Assembly: GCA_964106915.2 (NCBI GenBank)
Contig: OZ066919.1
Direction: 5' to 3' (one strand)
Length of the DNA stretch: 64,000 bases
Source: Podarcis gaigeae
Lineage: Eukaryota
Of this stretch, positions 13,196 to 63,973 are shown in pieces (within the stretch, counting starts at the first letter, position 1; every line of letters starts with the position of its first letter). A model generated the notes under the pieces. That model made no database searches, was not told where the DNA came from, and saw only the letters and a list, made by a program, of their open reading frames with translations. A program made the translations under genes and the position numbers.

Positions 13196-14314
13196 TCAGT
13201 GAAGCACTAAGCTGCCCAGACTTTCCACCTTGGTCCCCAGCTGCGATGGCTCCTGAGAGGGAAGAGACACTGTGGGGAGGGCAGTAGTGGCTGCTGCGGC
13301 GGCTACCGCCACCGCCGGGTTTTCCCCTCCAGGTAGCACTAAGCGGGCACAACGGCGGAACTCCTCGTTCTTCCACGTATAGAGCAGCGGGTTGAAGGCG
13401 GAGAGAGAGCAGAAGAGCAGCCAGCTGGCGATCTGCAGCCCCCGGGGCATGGGCCAGAAGAAAAAGCCCAGCAAGCTGACCCACACCAGAGGCTGCGTGG
13501 CCAGGAGGAACGCGAGACAGAGGAGCAAGACGGAGATGCTGCTGAGGCGCCGGGCCCGGCGGGGAGCCGCCGGAGCTGCTGGGAAGGGCAGCTGCTGGAG
13601 CAGGTGGAAGTTGAGGACGCTGACGCGCTTGACACTACCCCTCACCCTCCTGACAATCCCCATATAGCAGTAGAGCAGGAGGATTGTCTGGCTGAGGACA
13701 GCCAGGGCTACCAGAAGGCCCATGTAGTTCGAGCTCTTGGTACTGGTGCCATTTCGAGACTCCTGTCGGCTGGGTTGCCACATCTGCAGTCCTGGGGGGA
13801 CGGAGGCGAGGAGGAGGGCCAGCCCCCAGGACAAACTGATCATCCAGGCCGTGTGCTTCCTCTGGTAAACAGCCTGGTACGTGATGGGCGGCTTGGTGAT
13901 GAGGACATAGCGGTTGAGGGCCACCAGCAGGTGGGAGAGCAGTGAGACGATGAGCCCAAGGCCCACCAGCCCAGCACGGAGCAAGCGGTACCCTTCTGAC
14001 CGCACTGTCGGGGACCCGGAAGGGAGCAGTCCCTGCACCGCTTCTTGCGGCATCCAAAGGCCACAGACACTCAGGTCCGCAACGCAACCGTTGACAATGA
14101 AAGCGTTGCTGGTGGTGCGTAGTTTCCTGAAGGTGAAGACCAGGTAGATGACCATGATGTTGGATATGGTCCCGTAGATGGCTAGCAGCAAGTAGAAGAG
14201 AGACAAAGAGATCCTCGTCCCCAGGGAGTCTTCTTCACAAAGCAGCTGTTGCAAGGATCTAGAGCTCCAGGAGGAGGAGGAGGAGGAAGAAGAGGAGAAG
14301 GAGATATTGGGCAT
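13196..14314 (-). CDS. GPR88: G protein-coupled receptor 88 (orphan class A GPCR), single coding exon, 372 aa
   Basis: Translation matches recalled GPR88 motifs: LLCEEDS, RKLRTTSNAFIVNGCVADLSVCGLWMPQEAV, LVALNRY, VKRVSVLNFHLL, LATQPLVWVSL, NPLLYTWKNEEFRR. Seven hydrophobic segments. First ATG is at 14314 (the ORF-track start at 14347 is TTG). Lies next to CDC14A on the same strand, as in mammals. Confidence 0.97.
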   Translation of the reverse strand: MPNISFSSSSSSSSSWSSRSLQQLLCEEDSLGTRISLSLFYLLLAIYGTISNIMVIYLVFTFRKLRTTSNAFIVNGCVADLSVCGLWMPQEAVQGLLPSGSPTVRSEGYRLLRAGLVGLGLIVSLLSHLLVALNRYVLITKPPITYQAVYQRKHTAWMISLSWGLALLLASVPPGLQMWQPSRQESRNGTSTKSSNYMGLLVALAVLSQTILLLYCYMGIVRRVRGSVKRVSVLNFHLLQQLPFPAAPAAPRRARRLSSISVLLLCLAFLLATQPLVWVSLLGFFFWPMPRGLQIASWLLFCSLSAFNPLLYTWKNEEFRRCARLVLPGGENPAVAVAAAAATTALPTVSLPSQEPSQLGTKVESLGSLVLH

Positions 14315-16528
14315 TGTGTGGCACACAAATGAGGCTCTCCAGACCAACCCTCAGCACTGCTCGGTTCTGGAGAAGGCTAAGCTGAGCCAGGAAGAAATCC
14401 AGGAAAATCTCCTAGACCAGGCAGAACACAGCAGGAGCCAAAGCAGATAGTCAGAAAAGTACCAAACATACATGACGTCCCAGAATGTAGACGGTGATCT
14501 CCAAAACAGGCAAAGAGCAAGACTGGATCCCATGGAAAAACACCAACTTCTCAGATCGTGACAGGTCTCCAGAGTCAGTTGTTGGCAGAGGTGAAAGAAG
14601 GGATACGTGAGTCTTCTTCACCGTATTTCTACACAGAGGAGGCTGCAAGTATTCCAGATCACGAAAGAACAAGCTTGCCGATGGATCCAAGGCTGGTGTT
14701 TGCAAGCCAGGCAAGCAGAAGGAAGGCGAAATCCAGAGCTTGCCTCCAAATCTCCATGACTGCAGCAAAGTTAGATTCTCCTGGTCGAGTGCAGCCAGCA
14801 ACGAGTGCCCAAAGACAGGCAGGCGAGCGAGGAAGCAAGCAAGGCAGAAAAAAAAGAAACCTCAGCTGTGGAAATACCAGGAGTCCCAGCACCCTCTGGG
14901 CAATGGCCTCAAGAGTGGCAGCAGCTCATCTGAAGACCTGGAGCATCTTCTCTCGCTTTACAGCATGCACACTGTATTATCAGCCTGGGGAAATTCGGCG
15001 CTTCCCATCTTGATGAATTATTCAGCAGGTTTCAGGCTTGCGAGAGCAGGAGAGAGGGAGAGGGAGGGGAGGGGGAAAAGAAAAAGAAAGAACCAGCTTG
15101 CACTGAAAAGCCTGCAATTACAGAGACAGATCTCTCTCCCCCTGCCTCCATTGCCACCCACTGGAGTTCTCAAATCACACCCCTCTGGTCTCTTCCTGGA
15201 CCTCTCCTGTAGCACTGATTTTCAGGATAGAGAAGAAATTCCTTTGCTCACATCTACTTCCATTTCCTCCGACTCCCCTCCGTGAGGATGTGGTTGGTTT
15301 ATTTCCTCCTTTCCCCCTTTTTTTTAAAAATAAAAAAAATCTAATTTTAGATCAAATCTTTAGTTGCAATATGGGGAGGAAAAAACCACGCTCTTGCTTA
15401 AAACATTCTGCTCCTTGGCAACACAGTCTTCATCATATCACTGTGCCGATTCTCTAGTGTATTTTTGCCATAGGGTTCCCCCACCTCCGGAAACCTGTCC
15501 TTGTGAACGCAAAGCATCGTGGCAACGGAGCTGAGAAAGGTACAAAATAGGAGGGATGAAGTACATGGCTTTTCCTAAGAGAGGGAGGGGGCAGGTGCTG
15601 TCCTTATATTGAAAGCTGTCGATTAAAAAAGTGATCTCCCTGCCTGAAAATGCCCAAGGTGGGTGCACCAAAATGCCCCAATCCAACAAGGTGGAAGTTT
15701 CCCATGGGCTTGGTCTGGGGGGCGGGGGATGGACAGCTGCTCCCCCTCAGTCAAGTAAATAAATAAATAAAATACTTAACTAAAAGTAGGAATGATCACA
15801 ATATTTGAAAGCACTCACAGAGGTCACTTGGATGATGTCGTGGCGCATTCGAGAGATGCAACCGACAGAGCGATAGGCGTGGCTTCTGCAAACCAACAAA
15901 TCGCATCCCAGGTAGCTCAGCTTCTGGAAGCTTCTCATCGTTCCTGGCCGTCTCTCCTGAGAGTACGCCCCTGCGAGGCCTGTCTAGAAACGACTAGAAA
16001 TTCCCCACAGGCTATTTATACTGCGGAAAGCCCCCAGGCCCCAGTCAACGATGTTATTGTTATTATTTTTATTTAATTCCCTAGTTTTGAAACCACTGAA
16101 GATTTTGACAGATTTTTCCCCGAGAGCTTGAGGTCAACAGAAAGTCATTTAAAACAACTGTTGGGGAGACGGTTCATTCCGAATCTGCTAGACGGAGCCA
16201 GACGGAGCATGATGACAAGTGGGTGCCCCCCCCAACATAAATGCTGCTACGCCCAAGAAGTTGTCTACTAGGCTTGTAGCTGATGCGAATTCCAGACACC
16301 TTATACTTTCTGGATGTGTGTTTCAATGCACATGGGGAGATACATACCTATTCAGAGACTGTACGGAGGACAAAAAGGCGACTCGGGTCACATTTCAAAG
16401 CCAAATCGACCCAATCCGCAGTTTCTGAAATGCAGGCACCCCCCACTTACGCGCAGCTGACTTGTGGGCAACCGCACATGCATGCTTCGCCAGGAAATAA
16501 TTAAATAAATAGAACGGTACCAGGAAGT

Positions 16529-34645: not shown

Positions 34646-35215
34646 TAATGGGAACTGTATTCCAATAATAAGTGGAGGGCCACAGATTAGCAAACCCTGC
34701 TTTAGAGATTTGGTTTCAATTACCACATCACTTCAAAGACTCACATTCAGAAGTCCACACTTATCTGTGTGGAAGAATGCATTTAAAGCCATTAAGCAGA
34801 TGAGTCAGGGCAGCTTTCTGAATACGCATTTTGCTCGCTGGAATGATGCTCAAAGTCACTTTCAGTGTGGGATAATTTTAAGAGAAGGAAAGGTTTATAT
34901 ACATATTTACTTGTGAATCAGACACAAGAATGGCTCAGCGACATTCCCAACATTTAACATACCCACGGCAGGCTCACAAGGAGAAGTAGGTATAAAATAT
35001 GTCCCACTGCAAAAGGCCGTTAACGGGAGCAAATTCCAACAACAGTTCTCTGAACATGAATTGTGATATAAGAAGCGGCTCTAACACACACAACTTACAG
35101 GGACAGTCACTTTTAAGTGAGAGGGCGAGGGGGAAACGGGACGTTTCAAGATCTGCCAAAAAGTCAGTGAAAATATAATCCAAATTGCTTCTCTGTGAAC
35201 TATGGAAATAAGTAC

Positions 35216-35263
35216 CTGAAAGGCTGGGACCTGGATCTGGAGTGCAGTTTCATATCCTCAAGC
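35216..35263 (-). CDS. CDC14A: CDC14A exon 13 equivalent (48 nt): LEDMKLHSRSRSQPF
   Basis: ttctag|G ... AG|gtactt; same size and phase as the human SDDTKGHPRAVSQPFR exon. Confidence 0.9.
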
Positions 35264-35359
35264 CTAGAAAATCAATGGCATTTTAAATCAAAAGTATTCC
35301 CACTATACAGCCAAACCTAAAATCCTTAAAATATATACAGTATAATAATCTAATTAAAG

Positions 35360-35498
35360 TCAAAACAAAAAAAAAATCCTTCCAGTAGCACCTTAAAGAC
35401 CAACTAAGTTAGTTCTTGGTATGAGCTTTCGTGTGCATGCACACTTCTTCAGATACACTGACTATGGCAGACCAACACGGCTACCTATCTGTAACTGG
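35360..35498. mobile_element. Short Penelope-like (PLE) insertion, internally inverted
   Basis: Contains gtagcaccttaaagaccaac, the hammerhead and cagaccaacacggctacctatctgtaac; 13-bp TSD aatctaattaaag (35347-35359 / 35499-35511). Confidence 0.8.
35419..35456 (-). ncRNA. Minimal type I hammerhead ribozyme motif, sense to the CDC14A pre-mRNA (intron 12)
   Basis: Minus strand reads GTAT-CTGAAGA-A-GTGTGC-AT-GCACAC-GAAA-GC-TC-ATAC; core identical to the 63335 copy. Confidence 0.78.
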
Positions 35499-36242
35499 AA
35501 TCTAATTAAAGAACCAACAAGAATACTACATATTGATGAAACAGGAGTTTACTAATATACAAAGTACCAGGCTGTTCACTACATTTCTCTCCCAATCCGG
35601 AAACTGATTCCCAAAAAGGAAAGGAAATGAAAAACATTTTACCCATGCTCAGGAAGATTGGGATCTTCTCCAATGTCCCTGAGGAGGGAGCTCAACAGGG
35701 CATGTGTCTGCACTAAGAAGGTCCTCAATCTCATGCTGTACCCTTCAGACAGTGACCACCCAAAGCAGGGCCTCCTTCAACAGTCTTAAGGCACAGAGAG
35801 CCACATTCAGAAGGAAGACACAGCCTTTCATGGACAAAGTCCGAGGGTCAGTCCCTGGCATCACAAGTAAAAACAAAAGGACCAGGTAGCAGGTGATTAG
35901 ACGCCTCTTCCTGAATCCTAGATAGATGATGCAGAGTAAGAATGTGGGTGGACCACATTCATACACGAAGTTACATTTCTTCAGGTAACTCAGAATCTGA
36001 CTTCTATGAAATATTTTAAGCCTCTTTTCCCATTAAAACTAACATCTTTAGACAAAGAGCTGTCCCCAGCCTCTTGCCCCACGTCCCGGGAAAGTTGTTG
36101 TCAAAGCCTAGATAGGCATCGTTGTCCAAAGTAACAGATCTTTTAGTGCTGGACCTGTGAAATTAGGTGTTTTAAAGTATTGGTGGAATACCACCTGCTA
36201 ATCTAGATAGCTCCCCGAACACGAGAACTGTGAATGGGTCAC

Positions 36243-36358
36243 CTAAGAGTTCCCGTTGTAGCTGAACGTGGCTGCCTCCGAAGTTTTAAGGCACGAAGTT
36301 TGTCCCCTTGCGTCATACCATTCTTGATTTCCTGCTCTGAAGTGTCTTCCAATTCATT
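36243..36358 (-). CDS. CDC14A: CDC14A exon 12 equivalent (116 nt): NELEDTSEQEIKNGMTQGDKLRALKLRRQPRSATTGTL
   Basis: ttccag|AAT ... AG|gtgacc; TQGDKLRALK motif. Confidence 0.95.
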
Positions 36359-36666
36359 CTGGAAAATAGGTACAGTTCAACAAAATTAATGAGATTCAAA
36401 AGAGGATTGTGTTTTTTTGTTTTACTTTACCTGGGGCCCAGCCCTTTGAAGGCAATATATCTTTCCTTCTTGTGCCATATTGTTTTGGGTCCATTATCAA
36501 CTACACAGATAACCCATGGGCTCAAGTTGCCATTTCCCACAAAGCCCTCTCAGGGTGCGCTTTCCACAACAGAGATATTTCACACATAAGCAGCTGAGTG
36601 CATCTTATCTAACAGGTTGGAATTTAAAAGTTGATGACCAGTCGTTCGAGAGGAAATACTCTAGCT

Positions 36667-42372: not shown

Positions 42373-42525
42373 CATACAATTCGTATGAATTGTAGAGTTG
42401 GAAGGGACCATGAGGGTCATGTAGTCCAACCCCCTGCAATGCATGAATCTTTTGCCCAATGTGGGATTTGAACCCAAGACCCAAAGATTAAGAGTCTCAT
42501 GTTCTACCGACTGAGCTGTCTGCGG
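42373..42525 (-). mobile_element. tRNA-Lys(CTT)-headed SINE with CR1-derived 3' tail (Squam2 / tortoise Pol III-SINE type)
   Basis: Minus strand agctcagtcggtagaacatgagactcttaatct..gggttcaaatcccacattgggca joined to gcattgcagggggttggact..cccttccaactctac. Confidence 0.8.
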
Positions 42526-44831: not shown

Positions 44832-46953
44832 CTGTAACAGGAAGAGCGAAAACGCCTGGCTGTTTGTATACGACCTCCAAAAACTTCCTACTGGTACAGA
44901 CAACAACTACAACACCAGACTTTAAACACTTTTTGTTTAAAAACGAACATTACTAACGTAATCAACATAGTGTAAAAAGAAAGCAAACGTTACTAAGAAA
45001 ATCTGTGCAAGTATACAAAGTTGAGCGGCCTAAAATTGTAGTCAATAAACTTTCAGTCACGGAACCTTAGTTTGCACAACGCATTAAGCCAAATATAGCT
45101 TAGTGAGACTGTGCAAATGTTCACTGCTTTGGTCTTTCCTTGGAGATAGATATATGTAGATATAGATATAATCTGCTGTGTTGCCATAGTCAAGGTTGCC
45201 CTAGCATGTTGGTGTTATGCACTCTCACCTAACTATGAGGTGTAGCCATGAACAAATCTTGGTTTATAGCTCATGGTTGGTGTGGAGACAGCCACGAGTC
45301 TTTGCTCAGGTGTCATGCTAAGCCAAACCTTGGCTTATCTTCATGAAGCAGAAAATACCAAGGAGCAAAGCATCTGCAAGCTCATTCCTGGGAGCCTGCA
45401 CAGTATTGCTAAGCCTGTAACAGTGACATGTGAACAAGGAACAAACTAATGCTATTAGCTAACGTTGCAAGAAGCTGAACAACTAATAGGGTAGAAGAAG
45501 TATGAGTGGAAAACCCCCTTCTTCAATTAGATGTAGACCAGAATGCAGCATTCTTGCATCTTCCTCATCACCATGAAAATGACTTGATTAAAACAAGCAT
45601 TAACAAAAAACTCTCCAGGTATCTGTATATTAGAGTAGAACATTTACAGCTGTGGGGTACAACAACTAATGTATTTTCTATTTCTTCCCTCAGCTAACTC
45701 AGCAAGTCAACAACACACTGAAATATGCATGCTCTTCCTTTCTATGCTGCCCCCCACAGTTTCCTTTTTATATAGCTTTTGAAGATATGTGTTATAGTTC
45801 AGTAGCTACCAAACTGATAAGAGCTATGGCTCGTTTAAAGAAAGCAGAACAAATTTAAGGCTAGATACAAGAGTCTGAGATACAAGAATATCCTAGGGCA
45901 ATTCTTAATAGCAAGATGTTCCCTGTGCTTAAATCGGGCATCAAAAGGAAAATGATTTACAAAAAAAAAAAAAGAGAGAGAGAGAGAGCCCAACCACTTG
46001 AGTCTGGATTTTTGCTTTTTTTGCTTTTAGGAATAAAACATTCATTCTGAATAGGAGAATAGAAAACTAGCATATTGGTCTAAAAGAAGTGAGTATTATT
46101 TTAGCCACTACAGTATCTAAAACAGGGAATAATGCCACCTTATAGGTTTCACTCTAGATTAGAATCATAGGGTATGTATTCATGAAGTCCTCAGTCTGCA
46201 ATACTGTATGCCTGGACTCCACTGGCAGAGACCTCATAGGAAGGCAGATCATTCTGCCCCAGAATCTGCCTCATTGGCAATAAAGAATTCATATTTTATG
46301 TAGCATGTTCAAACATAACCTTAGGAATCCTTACAACTATCTAAGACCATTATCTATGTATTATAGATGCTGGGCTAGTCCCTCCAACCGTCCTGCCTTC
46401 ATTTTCAACTCTTATGTTTAATAGTCCTCATAGGCAGTGCCTATCTTCTCCCCAAATGTTAGCTTTGTAGGTCATTTGTAATTAAACTTGTAGTTCATGC
46501 AAACTGCCAGTTTTAAGAATGAAAGAAGGAAGGTTCGTTGTCTTCCCCACTTATAAGCTATTTTCATCTAACGATAATTATTTTTTTTTAAAAAAAAATG
46601 CAGACATGAAACAATGTTCATTTGGCCTCTATGGGTACTTCCAGACAAAAGCTCAATAGCACAAATGGGTCTCTGGAAACAGGTTGGGTTTTTAAAAAAC
46701 GTATTTGATCTTCCACAGAAAAGGTTAAATAAGGAGGGTCAATACTGATGCTAATGGCAGCATGTAGATGCTGTAAAAAGCTTGTGCACATGAGCTTACA
46801 TTAAACACCCATTTGGAAGCACCCTTGTAGCTTTTTAACACATCCACACAACTATTGTTTCCACTAATAGCATGGTGTTCTCCAAAGGGGTGCATACAAT
46901 GTTCCTGTGCATACAGCAAGGTCTCAATATCTACTTTTCACACATGTAGATCA

Positions 46954-55480: not shown

Positions 55481-56707
55481 TATTATTATTCACACTAAGG
55501 CCTTTATACAATAAAGCCACAAAGCAACTTGATAATCATTTGTCAATTGTACCGAAACCATTTCTTGAAAGTATGCCCTTCTATTAATCAATTGATTTTT
55601 TTAAAAGATACAATTTCTTTTTTACTAAACATGGCCGCTCTAGGGCCAAAGCTGAGCCTTTTCGAGTACCAGCTTCCAGATCTGCAACAATATTGACCTT
55701 GAAATAAAACTCTGGATAGGTAATTTGTGTTTTAAACTGTTTTTGTAGTTTATTGCTGGTTTTAATATTTTGATTTGTTTGATATTCTTGCTGTTAATTG
55801 TTAGTAAATTTATCTTTTTTAAACCGCTTTGAGGATTTTTACATTTAAGAGGTGTATAAAGTTTATTCAGTGTGAACCATAAGCTTGAATACCCCTCATA
55901 TCACATTTTAACACAAGTGTGTGCAAAAGAGAATACCTTCTATATTTTTTTCATATGATAATTTCTACTGGAATGTAATAAACCCAAGTGTTTAAAAGGC
56001 TTCAGCTGCTGCTGTTTGATCACTATCATGTTTTGCTCTTCTGCTTAATTGCGTGGTCCACTCAGTTCAACATCCTGAGGACCTGTCAGCTTTCACTGAA
56101 AAAAGCAAATTTCTGGGGCTTACAACTGCAAAGACAGGCAATGGCTGGAGAAATATCACACACCAACGGATAGGGTAAGAACAAACAGTCTCCTGTTTTC
56201 TATGAGTAAGGGTGGGAAACAGACCTGTGTGTATTTTCAAGGTTTAAAACCCAGCAGAATCCAGCTTCTCTTGGCATATGATGTATCATCCTTGGTGCTG
56301 AATTTCAGCTTTAGAGAACAGTATATACCCAGGCAGACTGGTATATTATGGCAACAGTGCTCCCATAAGCACAAGCCCTGACTCTGTGCAAGGTGCAACT
56401 AAGATTGCTGCAGATTCTGTGCCTAGGTAGCGGAAAGTGAAGTGGAAAAGGGCAATTTTCTTCCTGAAAGCTGTTTTTTCTAAAAACCTCGTACCACCTT
56501 TACACTTTCTTTCAGCCGTTCCATTCCCACTTGCATGTAAATACTGGCTTTATCCCTCTGTGTACAATAAGCCCTTTATTCACGATGTCTGATTACAAGG
56601 CACCTAATACTGCTGCCCAGATACCAAGTCCGTGTTTTATATTGTAGTGAGAGATCTTATCCTTTGTGGGTAAATCCTTATTCCTACTGACAAATTATGC
56701 TCCTGAA

Positions 56708-56887
56708 AAAATTGCTTCCAGTAGCACCTTAAAGACCAACTAAGTTAGTTCTTGGTATGAGCTTTCGTGTGCATGCACACAAAAGCTCATTCCAAGAACT
56801 AACTTAGTTGGTCTTTAAGGTGCTACTGGAAGCAATTTTTTTTGTTTTGACTATGGCAGACCAACACGGCTACCTATCTGTAACTGG
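56708..56887. mobile_element. Short Penelope-like insertion forming a long hairpin (hammerhead core incomplete)
   Basis: Same family sequence; inverted repeat centred on gtgtgcatgcacac; TSD tatgctcctgaa (56696-56707 / 56891-56902). Confidence 0.8.
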
Positions 56888-57803
56888 AACTATGCTCCTG
56901 AAGAAAGACTGAACATATATTCAAGATTTCAGACACTACAAACCTATAAGCCGGGGGTAGAGAACTTCAGGCCTGCAGGAGGGGGCGACACACACAAATG
57001 TGGCCTCCCGGGGCTCTCTCCAGCCCCCAGGACTTTCTCTAGGTCTCATCCACCAATGGCCTGACTTCACATCTTCTTCCTTCCTTCTTTTTGCCTGGCT
57101 AGAATGGGACATTTAACCCCGAAAACAACTTCTGCTTGCCTTAAAGAATAGAGTGAGGTGTGGGTGTGGGTGTGTGTAAAAACTAGTCTACTTTAGGTAA
57201 AGATAATATTTACATTTACTGCTCCTCCCATTTTTGTCTCTGCTCCATCCACCATTGGCATGCAGCCTTGGAAAAAAGGTTCCCCAGCACTGCTATAAGC
57301 TATCATTCACTTGCTACGTAGAGTCATACCTCAGATTGAAGTTGCTTCAGGTTGAGCGTTTTTGGGTCGCGCTCCGCGGTGACCTGGAAGTAACGCAACA
57401 CGTTACTTCCGGATTTTGCTGCTCGCGCATGCACAGACGCTCAAAATGACGGCATGCGCAGAAGTGGCACATCGCAAAGCTCTGGATGTGAACGAGGCTC
57501 TGGAACAGATCCCGTTTGCATCCAGAGGTACCTATGTATTTATTTTTCCAGCAACTGGTATTTGGAAGCATACTGTCTCCAAGCACGGAGGCAAAGCGTA
57601 GCCATTGTGGTTAGCAGCTACTGATAGCCTTCTCCTCCGTCAATTTATCTCGCCGTCTTTTAAACCCATCCCAGTTGGTAGCCAAAACTGCCTCTTGTGG
57701 GAGCAAATTCCATAGTTGATGGGCTGTGTGAAAAAAGCGCTTTCTTTCATCTGTCCCCAATCTTCCAACACTCTGCTTCATTGGATGACCCCAAGTTCTG
57801 GCG

Positions 57804-58732: not shown

Positions 58733-60859
58733 TTCTAGCGTTAAGAGAAAAAGGGAAAAACTTTTCTCTATCTGCTTTCTCCATCTCATGTGTAATTTTA
58801 CACCCTTCTGTTGTGTCACTATTTCTTGCCTTTTCTCAAAAGTAAGTAATGAACATCTGGGGAGAAAATAAATAAAAGTTATGCAGGAAGGTCCTGTTTA
58901 GGTAAAATTATCTTTATAGGAGTCAGTGTCGCCCCCCCCCCCAGGGGTGTGTGACACTATGGGAGGAATTTTAGCAACTCTATCAAGAAGCTGGATGGTC
59001 CTGATTTTTAAACATTGAAAGAGCCACATAACACCATAAAAAAACCAAGTGAAGACTTTGGAATTACAGAGGTAGTCTCGTTGTTTCTAGAAGCTTTCCT
59101 ATCAAAAATTTACCTGCCAATACTAATGCAATGGTTTTTCGAAAGGAAGCTTTCAGAAAGACTTGTCTTTATTTTCCTTTGCATAGGAATCCAGCAAGTT
59201 CAGGCAAGCCCAGAAAGTCTTTGCCATATACTATTAACAAAGCTGTGGCAACACCATATATCCCTTCCACAGCAGCAACTGTCACTATAGACTACCCTTG
59301 CAAACAAATGCTTTCACGTGCCAAACATTCTCTAAAGCTGTACACCATTTGTGTATAGCAATCTTTTAAAGTATGTCCTTTACTAAACTCTTGCAGTGGA
59401 GTCAGCCTTAAATATTCGCCGTCCTACTTTTGAAAAAAATGCACCTACCAATGCCAAGTTTCAAGTTAACTGTCATTTCTCTCATGTATGAAATGAGTGT
59501 CTACAAAGAGAGCTACAAAACTTACCAGCACATATATTTTTTATCCAGGAACCACAGGGTAAAGTGTCAGTCCCTATAAAACCAATGGCCGTACCCTAGA
59601 TCTGTGGTTTACAAACTGTGGGCCGCCAGTGGTTTGTGAGCTTTATTCAGGTAGCCAACAGTGTGTCTGGATTTGTGGATGCACATCCAATGCACTGAAT
59701 ATTGATTGTTAATTGCATTCTCACTGTGTCTTTTATTTCTTAGGTTGTATTGTATTTACAATTCAAATTCAGCAAGCAGAGAAACCATTAAGTGGTTCAC
59801 TAAGACCCCAAATGGTGGTGGTGGTGGTGGTGGGTTTGGAATAAAATAAAAATAAAGTTATGGCATTTCACCAAACATTTAAGAAAACAATTGAGTGTAT
59901 TCGACTAAGTTTTACTCAGGGAAATTAATGAACGTTACAAAATTAGATCCATTAATTTCAATGGGTCTACTCTGAGTAAAGTTTAGTTCAATGTGCATAA
60001 CTGCTTTAGGTTGGTGCTAAGACAAGCTCTACCAGAAACCGCCAGTCCAGCCAGCTTCTCTATGTGGAATTGGAAGTGGGGGCCATCTTGTCCTTTGCTT
60101 TAGGCAGCAAACTGCACTGGGTTAGCCATGGATAGCGTAGAAATAACATTCTAGATATACTTTAGCATGATGAAGCAATGCTCCCTTGCCTGCTGTTAAA
60201 GTTGACCAGACTGGTGGGTACCAGGGACTTCCCAGTGGTTGGTCCCATACCTGTGAACTCTGTGGGTCCCCTCTTGTGGCCTTTAAAGAGATTCAAAAAT
60301 TTCTGTATGCCACCAAGCTTTTTATTGACAATTATATCTGTCGCTCTTTCTATTCAAATGCCCCTCGTCGTATTGTTACGATATTCCATTGTTGTGTTGT
60401 TTTTGACATTTTAATTGTAAACTACCATGTGAGAGTTTGCCTTAAAGAGGCAGAGCGGAAATAACTAAAATCAAGAGTTTTCTGAATGAGTGGAAGTGAC
60501 TGCCTTTGGAAGACATCCATGGTTTCCAATTGGGACAGGAAGGCCAGCTGCGTGTACACCTATTTCCCGATACAGCTTGGTCCTTGTCAATGTTTACTCA
60601 GCTGTTGTACCCTGGGCTGGCCACAGGTGATTGTATCTGGCACCATTGGAATGCAAAGAGGCAGAGACAAGGGAGCACTGGGGAGATTCGGCTGAATCTC
60701 CCCTTATTGCAGTCCACTGGCGGTCTCAGTCACTTGCATAGAAAGCAATTCACTTGTGGCAGACTCTCCTCAGTGGTTTGTATTGCCTAATGAAGGGGCA
60801 AAGGCTAAGCAGAAAAACTGGAGGTATGCACTTCCATATATGAAAACTCTATAAAACAA

Positions 60860-60957
60860 GTTACAGATAGGTAGCCGTGTTGGTCTGCCATAGTCAAAAC
60901 AAAAAAAAATTCCTTCCAGTAGCACCTTAAAGACCAACTAAGTTGGTCTTTAAGGTG
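60860..60957. mobile_element. Short Penelope-like insertion with fold-back end
   Basis: gttacagataggtagccgtgttggtctg...agcaccttaaagaccaactaagttggtctttaaggtg; TSD ctctataaaacaa (60847-60859 / 60958-60970). Confidence 0.78.
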
Positions 60958-63222
60958 CTCTATAAAACAAAATATTGAGCATTATAAAATGGGTACCGCT
61001 GCCTATTGTGAAAGAATGCAGTCATATTTCACTGCAACAGATCCTTTGGGAAGCTAGAAGGTCTGGCACTGATAAAGCGATTTGACTAAAAACCTAACGT
61101 TAAGTGCCCTCAATGCAATATTAATCCCTTCAGCCAGCATTAACTTCTCCCCTGTCTTTCCACCATACACAGAGGTTGGAACCTGGCTGTGTGGTATATA
61201 TGACCTAGCTGAATACTGATATTTCAGCAGTCTTTTGCCTCTACAGTCCTAACATGAAATGATGTTTGAATTTCTAAGCAGATTAAGATTTTCCAGGTCA
61301 TTGAGCTAAATGAAACCAGATCTATTTGAATGAAAACTAATACTACATATTTCAAGAGACTCGATCGTGCAATGATTGTGTCCTGGTGCCTAGGAGGTGC
61401 AGAAAACAGACCTGAGAGTAGGTCTTCTCAGTAGCAGCATCTGGATTGTAGAATTTGTTATCTCAAGATACCCAGCAATCTGATTCACTTTAGATAATCA
61501 GGTATTAGGTCTAGATAGCCTCCTAGAATTGGTTCTCATTTTTGATTATTGATTCTAGGCCCAGGAGAACTTTATGATTGTTTGGTTATTTCAGTATTGG
61601 CTTTGTTTTTAATTATATGATTTATAAGCTTCTCTTAATGCTCCTTGAAGCACAAGAGGCACGCATGTTGCCTTATAAACAAAATCACAAGAACTCTCCA
61701 CATTAAATAGATATCACAATGTAAAAATCTCCTAAAAGTGTCTTATAATCTTGGATTATAGGAACTTCTTGGATCACTAGACTGAGAAATCCTGGAATCC
61801 AGTCATTTAAACTGAGAATCTTTACAAATGAAGAAAAGCATTTTTGTTGTTCCGGAACAAACAACAAGCTGATTTGGATCATGGAAATATGTATCTTTTT
61901 CTGTTCTTCCATTCATACCTTTCAACTAGATTCAGACATGCATTTCTCTTGAAACCATACCTAGGTAGGGAAAACTGGGTATTCCTGCAGGGGAACACAA
62001 TGAAGAGACTGTGCATGTTTGAGCCGCGCTTCCAGTCCCTTCTCAGGTACATTTCAGAGGGGAAAACAAGCAGTTTGTGTCAAACGCTTTACAATTGGCA
62101 CTGGGAGGCCTATAATGAATAAGCAGGCTCCAGGAGAAAAGTAACCAAGCAGCACAAGTCAATTCTGCTCTCAACTAAAAAAACAAGTAAATAACTAAAC
62201 AGTGTATGTGTTAGAACTACCATGTTCCATGCACTGACCCCACCAAGTGAGCATACACAGTAGCTATGTAGGCTTCAAAATAGCATTGCTATCATTGATA
62301 AGTTGCCCTTGCTTTAAATATTTGATGCCTACAGCTCAGAATACATTCCTGGCAGCTATCTAAACTCCAGGTATTACAAATAGCTCTGTGCTGAGAAAGC
62401 TTTGATGCTTGGCACCCAGCCAGCTTCTTTAAGCTGCTAATTCAGCAGCAATTTTGCCCTAATGAAAATGACTGTCAGGAAATGCCAGCCTTATGTACCT
62501 ATCCTTGAACTCTTTCCTACATTTTCAGGCAGAAGGTAGAAAGTCATTCTGATAATGACAAAGGAATGGCTTCTGTCACTATCTACCTAACGGTCAAACT
62601 TAATTCACTGGCATCTGTGACTCACATCTGTCTCAATAAGGCTCCAAGGCTGTGGCAGACACATCAAGCCCATGCTGGACCTACATTTTCTATTTAACTA
62701 GATCTGCCAAACACTAACTCTCTAGGTTTTGCGGTGAAGTGCAAATCAGTTCCTCAGAAGTTACAAGCCCATAATACAAGCCTGGAGACACGGCCTCTTA
62801 AATCTGGTTGAAAAGAAGACATGCATATTTAATATGCAGAAATGTACCAAATGACACACTAAAGAACACAAAAGCGAAAGTTTAGTTAATTTTTATCAAT
62901 GAAGCCAAAACCATTCAAGTAGTATTAATCATTGAATTTATTTGTCATTTTCTACCAGAAAAGTCTCAAAGTGAGTTACAACAATAGCATTCATGCAACC
63001 ACAAATATGTATGATGTGTAAAATCAACAATACACTAAAACCAATGATCCACAATCACCAAAACCAAGCAAAAATGCCCTTCCCTCACACAACACAAGGA
63101 TTCCAACTGAGATAGCCACAAGAACCCCAACAATATTAGGATCCAAATGCCTGGGAGGATTAAAAAAACAAAACAACAGCACATTTTAACCTGGTGCCCC
63201 AAATCTGTCAACATTTGTGCTA

Positions 63223-63428
63223 CAGATAGGTAGCCGTGTTGGTCTGCCATAGTCAAAACAAAAAAATTCCTTCCAGTAGCACCTTAAAGACCAACTAAGT
63301 TAGTTCTTGGTATGAGCTTTTGTGTGCATGCACAGGTATCTGAAGAAGTGTGCATGCACACGAAAGCTCATACCAAGAACTAACTTAGTTGGTCTTTAAG
63401 GTGCTACTGGAAGGAATTTTTTTGTTTT
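63223..63428. mobile_element. Short Penelope-like insertion with ~80-bp inverted arms containing a hammerhead
   Basis: Arms ~63255-63334 and ~63349-63428; TSD aacat(t/a)tgtgcta (63210-63222 / 63429-63441). Confidence 0.82.
63335..63374 (+). ncRNA. Minimal type I hammerhead ribozyme motif (Penelope-associated)
   Basis: GGTAT-CTGAAGA-A-GTGTGC-AT-GCACAC-GAAA-GC-TC-ATACC: stem I GGTAT/ATACC, core CUGANGA and GAAA, stem II GTGTGC/GCACAC, palindromic AGCU in place of helix III, UC cleavage site at 63369. Confidence 0.8.
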
Positions 63429-63973
63429 AACATATGTGCTAGCAGAGCTTCCACAAATATAGGGCTGCCACCCCAAAGGTCTGTGCTGGCAATCTTCCAG
63501 AGACTTGTTATTGGGAGGTGGTAAGGTGGTGTGTGGGAGAAAGAATGCAGGAGGGAGCCAGGAAAAAAATAATAGTGCATGTACAGCTCTTTGGACCTTT
63601 GGTGGGTAGCAAGCAAAAGGAACAAAAAGCAGTCAGAAAAACAGGTCCAAAAATGAAGCAAGAGAAATGTAGACTAAGGGGAGTATCGTGGTGCCCGAAA
63701 GAAGCTACACAACATCATCCATGTAGCATGGTAATATAAATGCTAGGCAGCGACTGCAACACAATATGCCAGCCTCAAACACCTATTTAGAAGCTTTGAA
63801 GCTAATCTGTTTAATTTGTAACTACAGCTGGCATAATGTAATGGCTAAGAGGCTGAGCAATGAATCAGGAAGAGCCTGGGTTGACTCTTACCTCTGTCAC
63901 AAACTCACTAGGAGGCTGCAGGCAAACCTTACTGTCTTTTAGGCTCCCCCTGCAATGTGGGGGATAACAAATA

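Follow-up and report, generated by a model that had tools for sequence, protein, structure and literature searches.

The window, i.e. the whole 64,000-nt stretch of Podarcis gaigeae DNA that was analysed, carries on its minus strand the CDC14A gene of this lacertid lizard. The product of one exon matched CDC14A in the PDB with an E-value of 4e-40 and the CDC14A proteins of Podarcis and Zootoca at 97-99%, and protein P0003, mapped over the window and the next 100 kb, gave 16 coding exons. The features found in and next to intron 12 are the following.

35216-35263, minus strand: CDC14A coding exon 13, 48 nt (P0003 mapping, AG/GT borders, joint from exon 12 in related species)
35264-36242, minus strand: CDC14A intron 12, 979 nt (exon mapping and spliced contigs), with an insertion 83 nt above the 3' splice site
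35347-35359: left copy of a 13-bp target-site duplication (direct repeat; empty-site contigs)
35358-35461, minus strand (CDC14A sense): short arm of the pLTR of a Penelope-like element (Neptune-type), reaching from ~5 nt ahead of helix I to ~+97
35419-35456, minus strand (CDC14A sense): core of a minimal type I hammerhead (descriptor scan, exact genomic copies, folding)
35460-35498, plus strand: Penelope tail of ~38 nt (+94 to +131), inverted relative to the arm, 100% identical over 38 nt to a long natural copy
35499-35511: right copy of the 13-bp target-site duplication (direct repeat; empty-site contigs)

Contigs from the presumed-RNA runs of two related species join position 36242 to 35262 over a 979-nt CT..AC intron. 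Together with the exon mapping, they confirm the gene, the exon numbering, the sense orientation and the distance of ~155 nt to exon 13 that had been given in the initial annotation; exon 13 lies 155 nt from the end of the core and 159 nt from the predicted cut. The acceptor of this exon is the poorest in pyrimidines of the 11 in the window (11/18 positions). In the same runs, contigs cover most of intron 12 at a depth of 15-18, compared with 218-265 for the spliced joints, and may represent retained intron, pre-mRNA or DNA. Two other elements were detected along the window: a tRNA-like fragment in CDC14A intron 10 (42461-42517, minus strand, 30.5 bits for a gathering score of 29), which is probably a tRNA pseudogene or a SINE head, and, downstream of CDC14A, an intronless frame of a rhodopsin-family GPCR (13199-14350, minus strand, 7tm_1, E 1.5e-24), which is probably GPR88 by synteny.

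In RNA order on the minus strand (35419-35456), the core reads GUAU for helix I, CUGAAGA, an extra A, helix II, GAAA, GC, UC, the cut and AUAC. It is thus made of a 4-bp helix I, a 5-bp helix II preceded by the extra A, and a loop-less helix III of sequence AGCU. This sequence, with all its catalytic bases, was recovered base by base as first described, and the cut predicted from the descriptor scan, directly after 35423 as the last base ahead of it, agrees with the position proposed earlier. Helix II had been drawn as 6 bp with a 2-nt loop and had to be revised, as folding gives 5 bp and a 4-nt loop; it is a perfect 14-nt palindrome (35431-35444). Among the characters that define minimal hammerheads (min-HHR), the CUGANGA, GAAA and UH core and helices I and II were found by the descriptor scan (helix II probability 0.65-0.98), and the extra base after position 9, the G10.1-C11.1 pair and the palindromic loop-less helix III were read from the sequence. 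The class initially assigned, a minimal hammerhead of Penelope type that needs a partner and whose helix III, AGCU, has no loop, is upheld by these sequence criteria. Searches with the Rfam hammerhead models, which had been suggested as a check, gave no match at gathering score, nor any at E<=10 in 35200-35700.

The CTGANGA heptamer taken alone occurs in the window at chance level (37 seen, 34.8 expected). The full hammerhead descriptor has two matches in the 64 kb on both strands, both of them within the same repeat family; the second, which the initial annotation did not include, is an intact core at 63336-63373 on the plus strand, antisense to CDC14A. An exact pattern search with the 38-mer core returned 4,509 + 4,512 = 9,021 copies in the 1.51-Gb genome (~6 per Mb) and none for the reversed control. 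Since both descriptor matches lie in the repeat and the genomic copies number 9,021 against 0 for the control, the motif in intron 12 is considered as not due to chance, yet as part of a repeat.

The hammerhead sits in a 139-bp insertion flanked by the 13-bp target-site duplication (TSD), a direct repeat whose copies are 152 nt apart. The insertion consists of two pieces in opposite orientation, an arm of ~100 nt with the hammerhead (minus strand) and the tail of ~38 nt (plus strand), which share 2-5 bases at their junction (read directly). The arm is 95% identical over 104 nt to a long natural copy and 95-98% identical to the pLTR found behind GIY-YIG frames. A twin of this layout, with an arm, an inverted tail and a 14-bp TSD, was met at one of the sampled loci (L087, block 45206-45330).

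Presence of the insertion was compared over 34900-36400 in eight sequencing runs, six from six other related species and two from Podarcis gaigeae. The site is empty in all six relatives, in which contigs skip exactly 152 nt and leave 13 letters that fit either side, one of the six contigs having just 34 letters on its short side. Both Podarcis gaigeae runs read into the insertion from either side, with 0-3 differences, and no empty-site joint was listed for them; one of the two may come from the sample used for the assembly. The insertion therefore probably arose after the lineage had separated from the closest of the six tested relatives, and is no conserved regulator. Intronic ribozymes regarded as conserved are kept at the orthologous site in relatives, and here this site was empty in 6/6.

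The parent element was searched for from the copies themselves. Among the first 30 exact-core loci, two have the end of a reading frame upstream, one of which scores as GIY-YIG. A genome search with this GIY-YIG end gave at least 150 matches at 99-100% identity (150 of 5,441 candidates were scored). In the GIY-YIG loci that were fetched, the arm follows the frame in 12/12 cases, and the exact core lies 181-185 nt past the stop in 10/12. RVT_1 and GIY-YIG domains were both detected in the three long frames tested (725-813 aa), and a CxxxxCxxC linker is present in the four long frames inspected for it. A CX2-5CxxC linker between the reverse transcriptase (RT) and the endonuclease (EN) marks Neptune and Nematis elements (PMC8557442), and by the linker motif alone the family would be classed as a Neptune-type Penelope-like element. 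The parent has a single frame with RT and C-terminal GIY-YIG, tied to the same pLTR arm, as expected for an EN+ Penelope; its hammerhead-bearing pLTR, inverted truncated copies, tail of 30-40 bp and TSD belong to the same set of characters. A TSD of 11-16 bp was recognized in 9 of the 11 short loci examined.

Four long copies were inspected and none is clearly a complete tandem: the copy at L053 has a partial arm upstream, and the others looked 5'-truncated. This partial arm (L053, 6372-6450) is 84% identical and precedes the 813-aa frame in the same orientation, lacks CUGAAGA and has the G12A change; it may represent an insertion of its own or an older pLTR lying upstream. Non-LTR retrozymes are composed of head-to-tail hammerhead units (definition taken from the preprint 10.64898/2026.07.22.740005), and the intron 12 site shows a single arm with a TSD. 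Among the sampled loci, two arms in direct orientation occur in 1 of 12 (L067), the remainder being single or inverted. The at least 150 near-identical endonuclease ends and the open frames of up to 813 aa suggest an active family, and family sequence was found in the presumed-RNA runs of related species. A literature search of main texts returned no report on this lacertid family, and nothing linking CDC14A to a ribozyme.

Including that of intron 12, the window contains four insertions of this Penelope family. The three others are as follows.

56706-56889, both strands: second insertion, in CDC14A intron 5, with two 68-nt inverted arms and a tail, without CUGAAGA
60859-60959, minus strand: third insertion, tail and 3' part only, without hammerhead
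63221-63431, both strands: fourth insertion, inverted arms, with the intact core 63336-63373 on the plus strand

In the second insertion the inversion (56706-56841) turns at the helix II palindrome; the minus arm bears a hammerhead half-site and the plus arm has G12A. In the fourth, the minus arm lacks CUGAAGA and has G12A. The intact core of the fourth insertion is predicted to fold back on itself, with a probability of 0 for helices I and II; being antisense to CDC14A and predicted to be self-paired, it was rejected as a partner of the intron 12 hammerhead.

The initial annotation had proposed that the intron 12 core may be cleaved conditionally and co-transcriptionally near exon 13, with the intron 5 half-site or other transcripts of the family as partner, a model in which CDC14A splicing or output would be altered. 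The half-site is indeed present at 56754-56780, 21.3 kb upstream of the intron 12 core. It forms one arm of an inverted repeat (68 bp, 97% identity) that had gone unmentioned, and the predicted fold encloses it in this 68-bp hairpin, 10 of 12 bases having a probability of being unpaired of at most 0.003. Neither CUGAAGA nor the 5' helix I strand is present in it, and it therefore could act only as a substrate in a dimer, whose cut would fall in intron 5; this role follows from the dimer geometry, in which each hammerhead core cuts the opposite strand (PMC4209133). On these grounds (68-bp hairpin, 21.3 kb, no CUGAAGA) the half-site was rejected as a cis partner. What can be said for the proposal is that an intact sense core lies 159 nt from a short exon with the pyrimidine-poorest acceptor (11/18), and that fast intronic ribozymes can abort splicing, a fast HDV ribozyme having blocked it (as cited in PMC2995048). 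Against it stand the distance, the predicted hairpin and the catalytic incompleteness of the half-site, the absence of the insertion from 6/6 relatives, and the number of comparable sites: if 30-50% of the genome is assumed to be intronic, an estimated 1,350-2,250 identical cores lie in sense orientation in introns, and the CDC14A site is therefore not special. Conditional cleavage beside exon 13 with the intron 5 partner is thus unsupported, and an effect of cleavage on CDC14A splicing or output is considered highly improbable.

Helix III having no loop, the intron 12 hammerhead requires a partner. The behaviour of one and two copies was approached by folding. Helix I is predicted with a probability of 0.64-0.73 in the bare core, against 0.004-0.028 with 20-150 nt of intron flank. 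The predicted energy of the active dimer is -11.1 kcal/mol, that of two monomers -13.6 and that of the helix II palindrome duplex -28.0, which would favour pairing of two copies in the inactive 14-bp palindrome duplex rather than the active dimer. Such nearest-neighbour energies take no account of Mg2+, tertiary contacts or proteins, and they forbid the loop-less helix III by construction; as a long natural copy also scores low for helix I (0-0.32), they are taken as indicative only. Published assays point in the same direction. A min-HHR showed no cleavage as a monomer and low cleavage as dimers (PMC4209133), and a review describes min-HHR rates as very low even in the dimer form (PMC6765202). 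The hammerhead of the anole element PAc cleaves only with its own protein, uncut RNA being the main insertion template, and no RNA-seq reads ended at the cut (PMC11167929). Splicing of introns cut by a hammerhead stayed largely intact and similar in efficiency, unlike with the fast HDV ribozyme (as cited in PMC2995048).

For the ends of genomic copies, a blind sample of 16 blocks of 50 kb (L057-L136, 800 kb), chosen regardless of content, was used, which contained 18 arms at 12 loci, and one piece made of tail only. The sample is small, two arms of the same inverted insertion cannot be counted as independent, and the ends given by BLAST are uncertain by a few bases. Within these limits, 14 of the 18 arms start no more than ~5 nt from the first helix I base, one starts far upstream, and none (0/18) starts near the cut site. 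As arms start at the 5' edge of the ribozyme and none at the cut, the template RNAs that were copied were likely uncut. The 3' ends form two clusters, one at +88 to +101 and one at +128 to +132. The first 30 loci (L001-L030, a set biased toward the core) contain 31 copies with the exact core, of which 14 retain at most 6 nt of upstream pLTR and 13 retain over 40 nt.

In the long copies, a TATA-like box is found at -33, followed by an Inr-like TCAGT whose A lies at -3. From these motifs and the copy ends, we infer that transcription would start by the 5' edge of helix I. A similar TATA/Inr-like pair is described in rotifer pLTRs (PMC3846280); the Penelope promoter of D. virilis is TATA-less and internal (PMC2377424). 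Splicing was also considered as the origin of the clustered 5' ends, since a pyrimidine-rich CAG is found immediately 5' of helix I in the long pLTR, and in the D. virilis element an intron ends just before helix I (PMC4209133). Short copies read by eye showed no common upstream exon, and this explanation is disfavoured.

Sequence decay was followed within the core. Among the changes listed, G12A is the only one in the core that reaches at least 10%, with 12-16% of depth in four runs; it is present in 2 of the 5 window arms that cover G12, and C11.1U in 3 of the 18 sampled arms. The CpG across C11.1-G12 (window 35430-35431) appears to be the most mutated site of the core, with inactivation thus built into the sequence, and G12A fits CpG decay. 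The catalytic bases are intact in the intron 12 core and in 10 of the 11 sampled arms that span the core, a point against the reading of a silent passenger; it fits the youth of the copies and would also be compatible with activity.

Taken together, we consider, with a probability of about 0.87, that the end of a Neptune-type Penelope-like element was recently inserted into intron 12, as a 139-bp segment with a 13-bp TSD, and that the hammerhead is likely a passenger that would rarely cut the pre-mRNA of CDC14A and for which no effect on splicing is predicted. The GIY-YIG endonuclease of the element would nick both strands 13 nt apart, and the reverse transcriptase would start at two internal sites, one on each side of the tail. 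Of the two cDNAs, one would comprise the ~38-nt tail only; the other, begun at ~+97, would reach the 5' end of an uncut RNA, a short way ahead of helix I, and the two would then join head to head via a few shared bases. Within the element, the ribozyme would act in the processing of tandem transcripts, either dimerised or aided by the element's protein; the lone intronic copy would be left without a helix III, a partner or a contiguous tail. Nothing points to a host function, the insertion being absent in 6/6 relatives and its core being one of 9,021 identical ones. A young insertion can still have an effect.

An alternative is a slow and occasional cut in trans by element RNA or by another core-bearing pre-mRNA, possibly helped by the element's protein in germ cells, with splicing unchanged. 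The thousands of identical full cores in the genome, the apparently active family (at least 150 near-identical endonuclease ends and frames up to 813 aa), its sequence in the presumed-RNA runs of relatives and the protein-assisted cleavage known for PAc (PMC11167929) all speak for it. It has to be set against the predicted preference of the copies for the inactive 14-bp palindrome duplex, the 0/18 sampled arms that start at the cut site, and the tail, where RT starts in PAc, which is inverted and detached in the intron 12 insertion; we regard it as unlikely. A broader version, in which expressed Penelope RNA or protein trans-activates an estimated one to two thousand identical sense intronic hammerheads, that of CDC14A intron 12 included, is judged quite improbable. 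If true, it would couple transposon activity to the conditional cutting of many pre-mRNAs, and a strand bias against intact intronic cores would be expected.

A splicing effect independent of catalysis was considered for a TAG located 86 nt ahead of the true acceptor, above which the insertion brings a U-tract. A U10 tract is indeed brought near that AG, and its use would add 86 nt and shift the frame. The pyrimidine count is, however, 13/18 with or without the insertion, and differs further out by 20 versus 18 of 28. An insertion-made cryptic acceptor was rejected on this unchanged count, and hardly any credence is given to it.

The preferred reading, that of a recent and mostly silent passenger, gives the single locus little weight: it is a species-specific transposon scrap, useful at most as a presence/absence marker among lacertids. 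By its sequence definition the core is a min-HHR, in an insertion with the structural marks of EN+ Penelopes, a kind already known. The family as a whole offers more. The ~9,000 intact cores, together with the many G12A cores as a built-in control, permit a test of host cost by comparison of sense and antisense intronic counts; in Xenopus, 42-44% of retrozyme copies are intronic and these are depleted after size normalisation (preprint 10.64898/2026.07.22.740005). The copy ends at the 5' edge of the ribozyme, in a small sample, form a genomic record that fits the uncut-template result obtained in vitro.

Amniotes have intronic ribozymes, among them the hammerheads HH9/RECK and HH10, that occur in single copy and are conserved between species. 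The lizard core resembles these ribozymes (hammerheads and the HDV-like CPEB3; PMC6765202) as a self-cleaving motif, here a predicted one, in sense orientation in an intron; it differs from them by its 9,021 copies and by a site that is empty in six relatives. Its closest counterparts are the min-HHR of Penelope-like elements (PMC4209133), with which it shares the type I architecture, the 4-bp helix I, the extra base between positions 9 and 10.1, the G10.1-C11.1 pair, the palindromic 15.2-16.2 without loop 3, and thousands of scattered single copies. The same paper mentions reptiles (turtle, snakes). The 14-nt palindrome of helix II, which gives 5 bp, contrasts with the 7-8 bp of the Schistosoma min-HHR, and the near identity of the lizard copies indicates a young burst, as in D. 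virilis (both PMC4209133). With Neptune EN+ elements (PMC8557442) the parent shares RT, the CX2-5CxxC linker and, at the C terminus, GIY-YIG, and the family shares 5' truncation, inverted truncated copies, a tail of 30-40 bp at one end and a pLTR hammerhead; the intron 12 insertion differs in having no coding sequence and consists of just an arm and an inverted tail. In the PAc element (Poseidon_Ac) of Anolis carolinensis (PMC11167929), the two RT starts observed in vitro, which bound the tail, match the two clusters of 3' ends of the lizard copies, and the uncut template matches the absence of lizard copies starting at the cut. PAc differs from the lizard family in belonging to the Poseidon clade and in having its start codon inside the hammerhead (PMC11167929).
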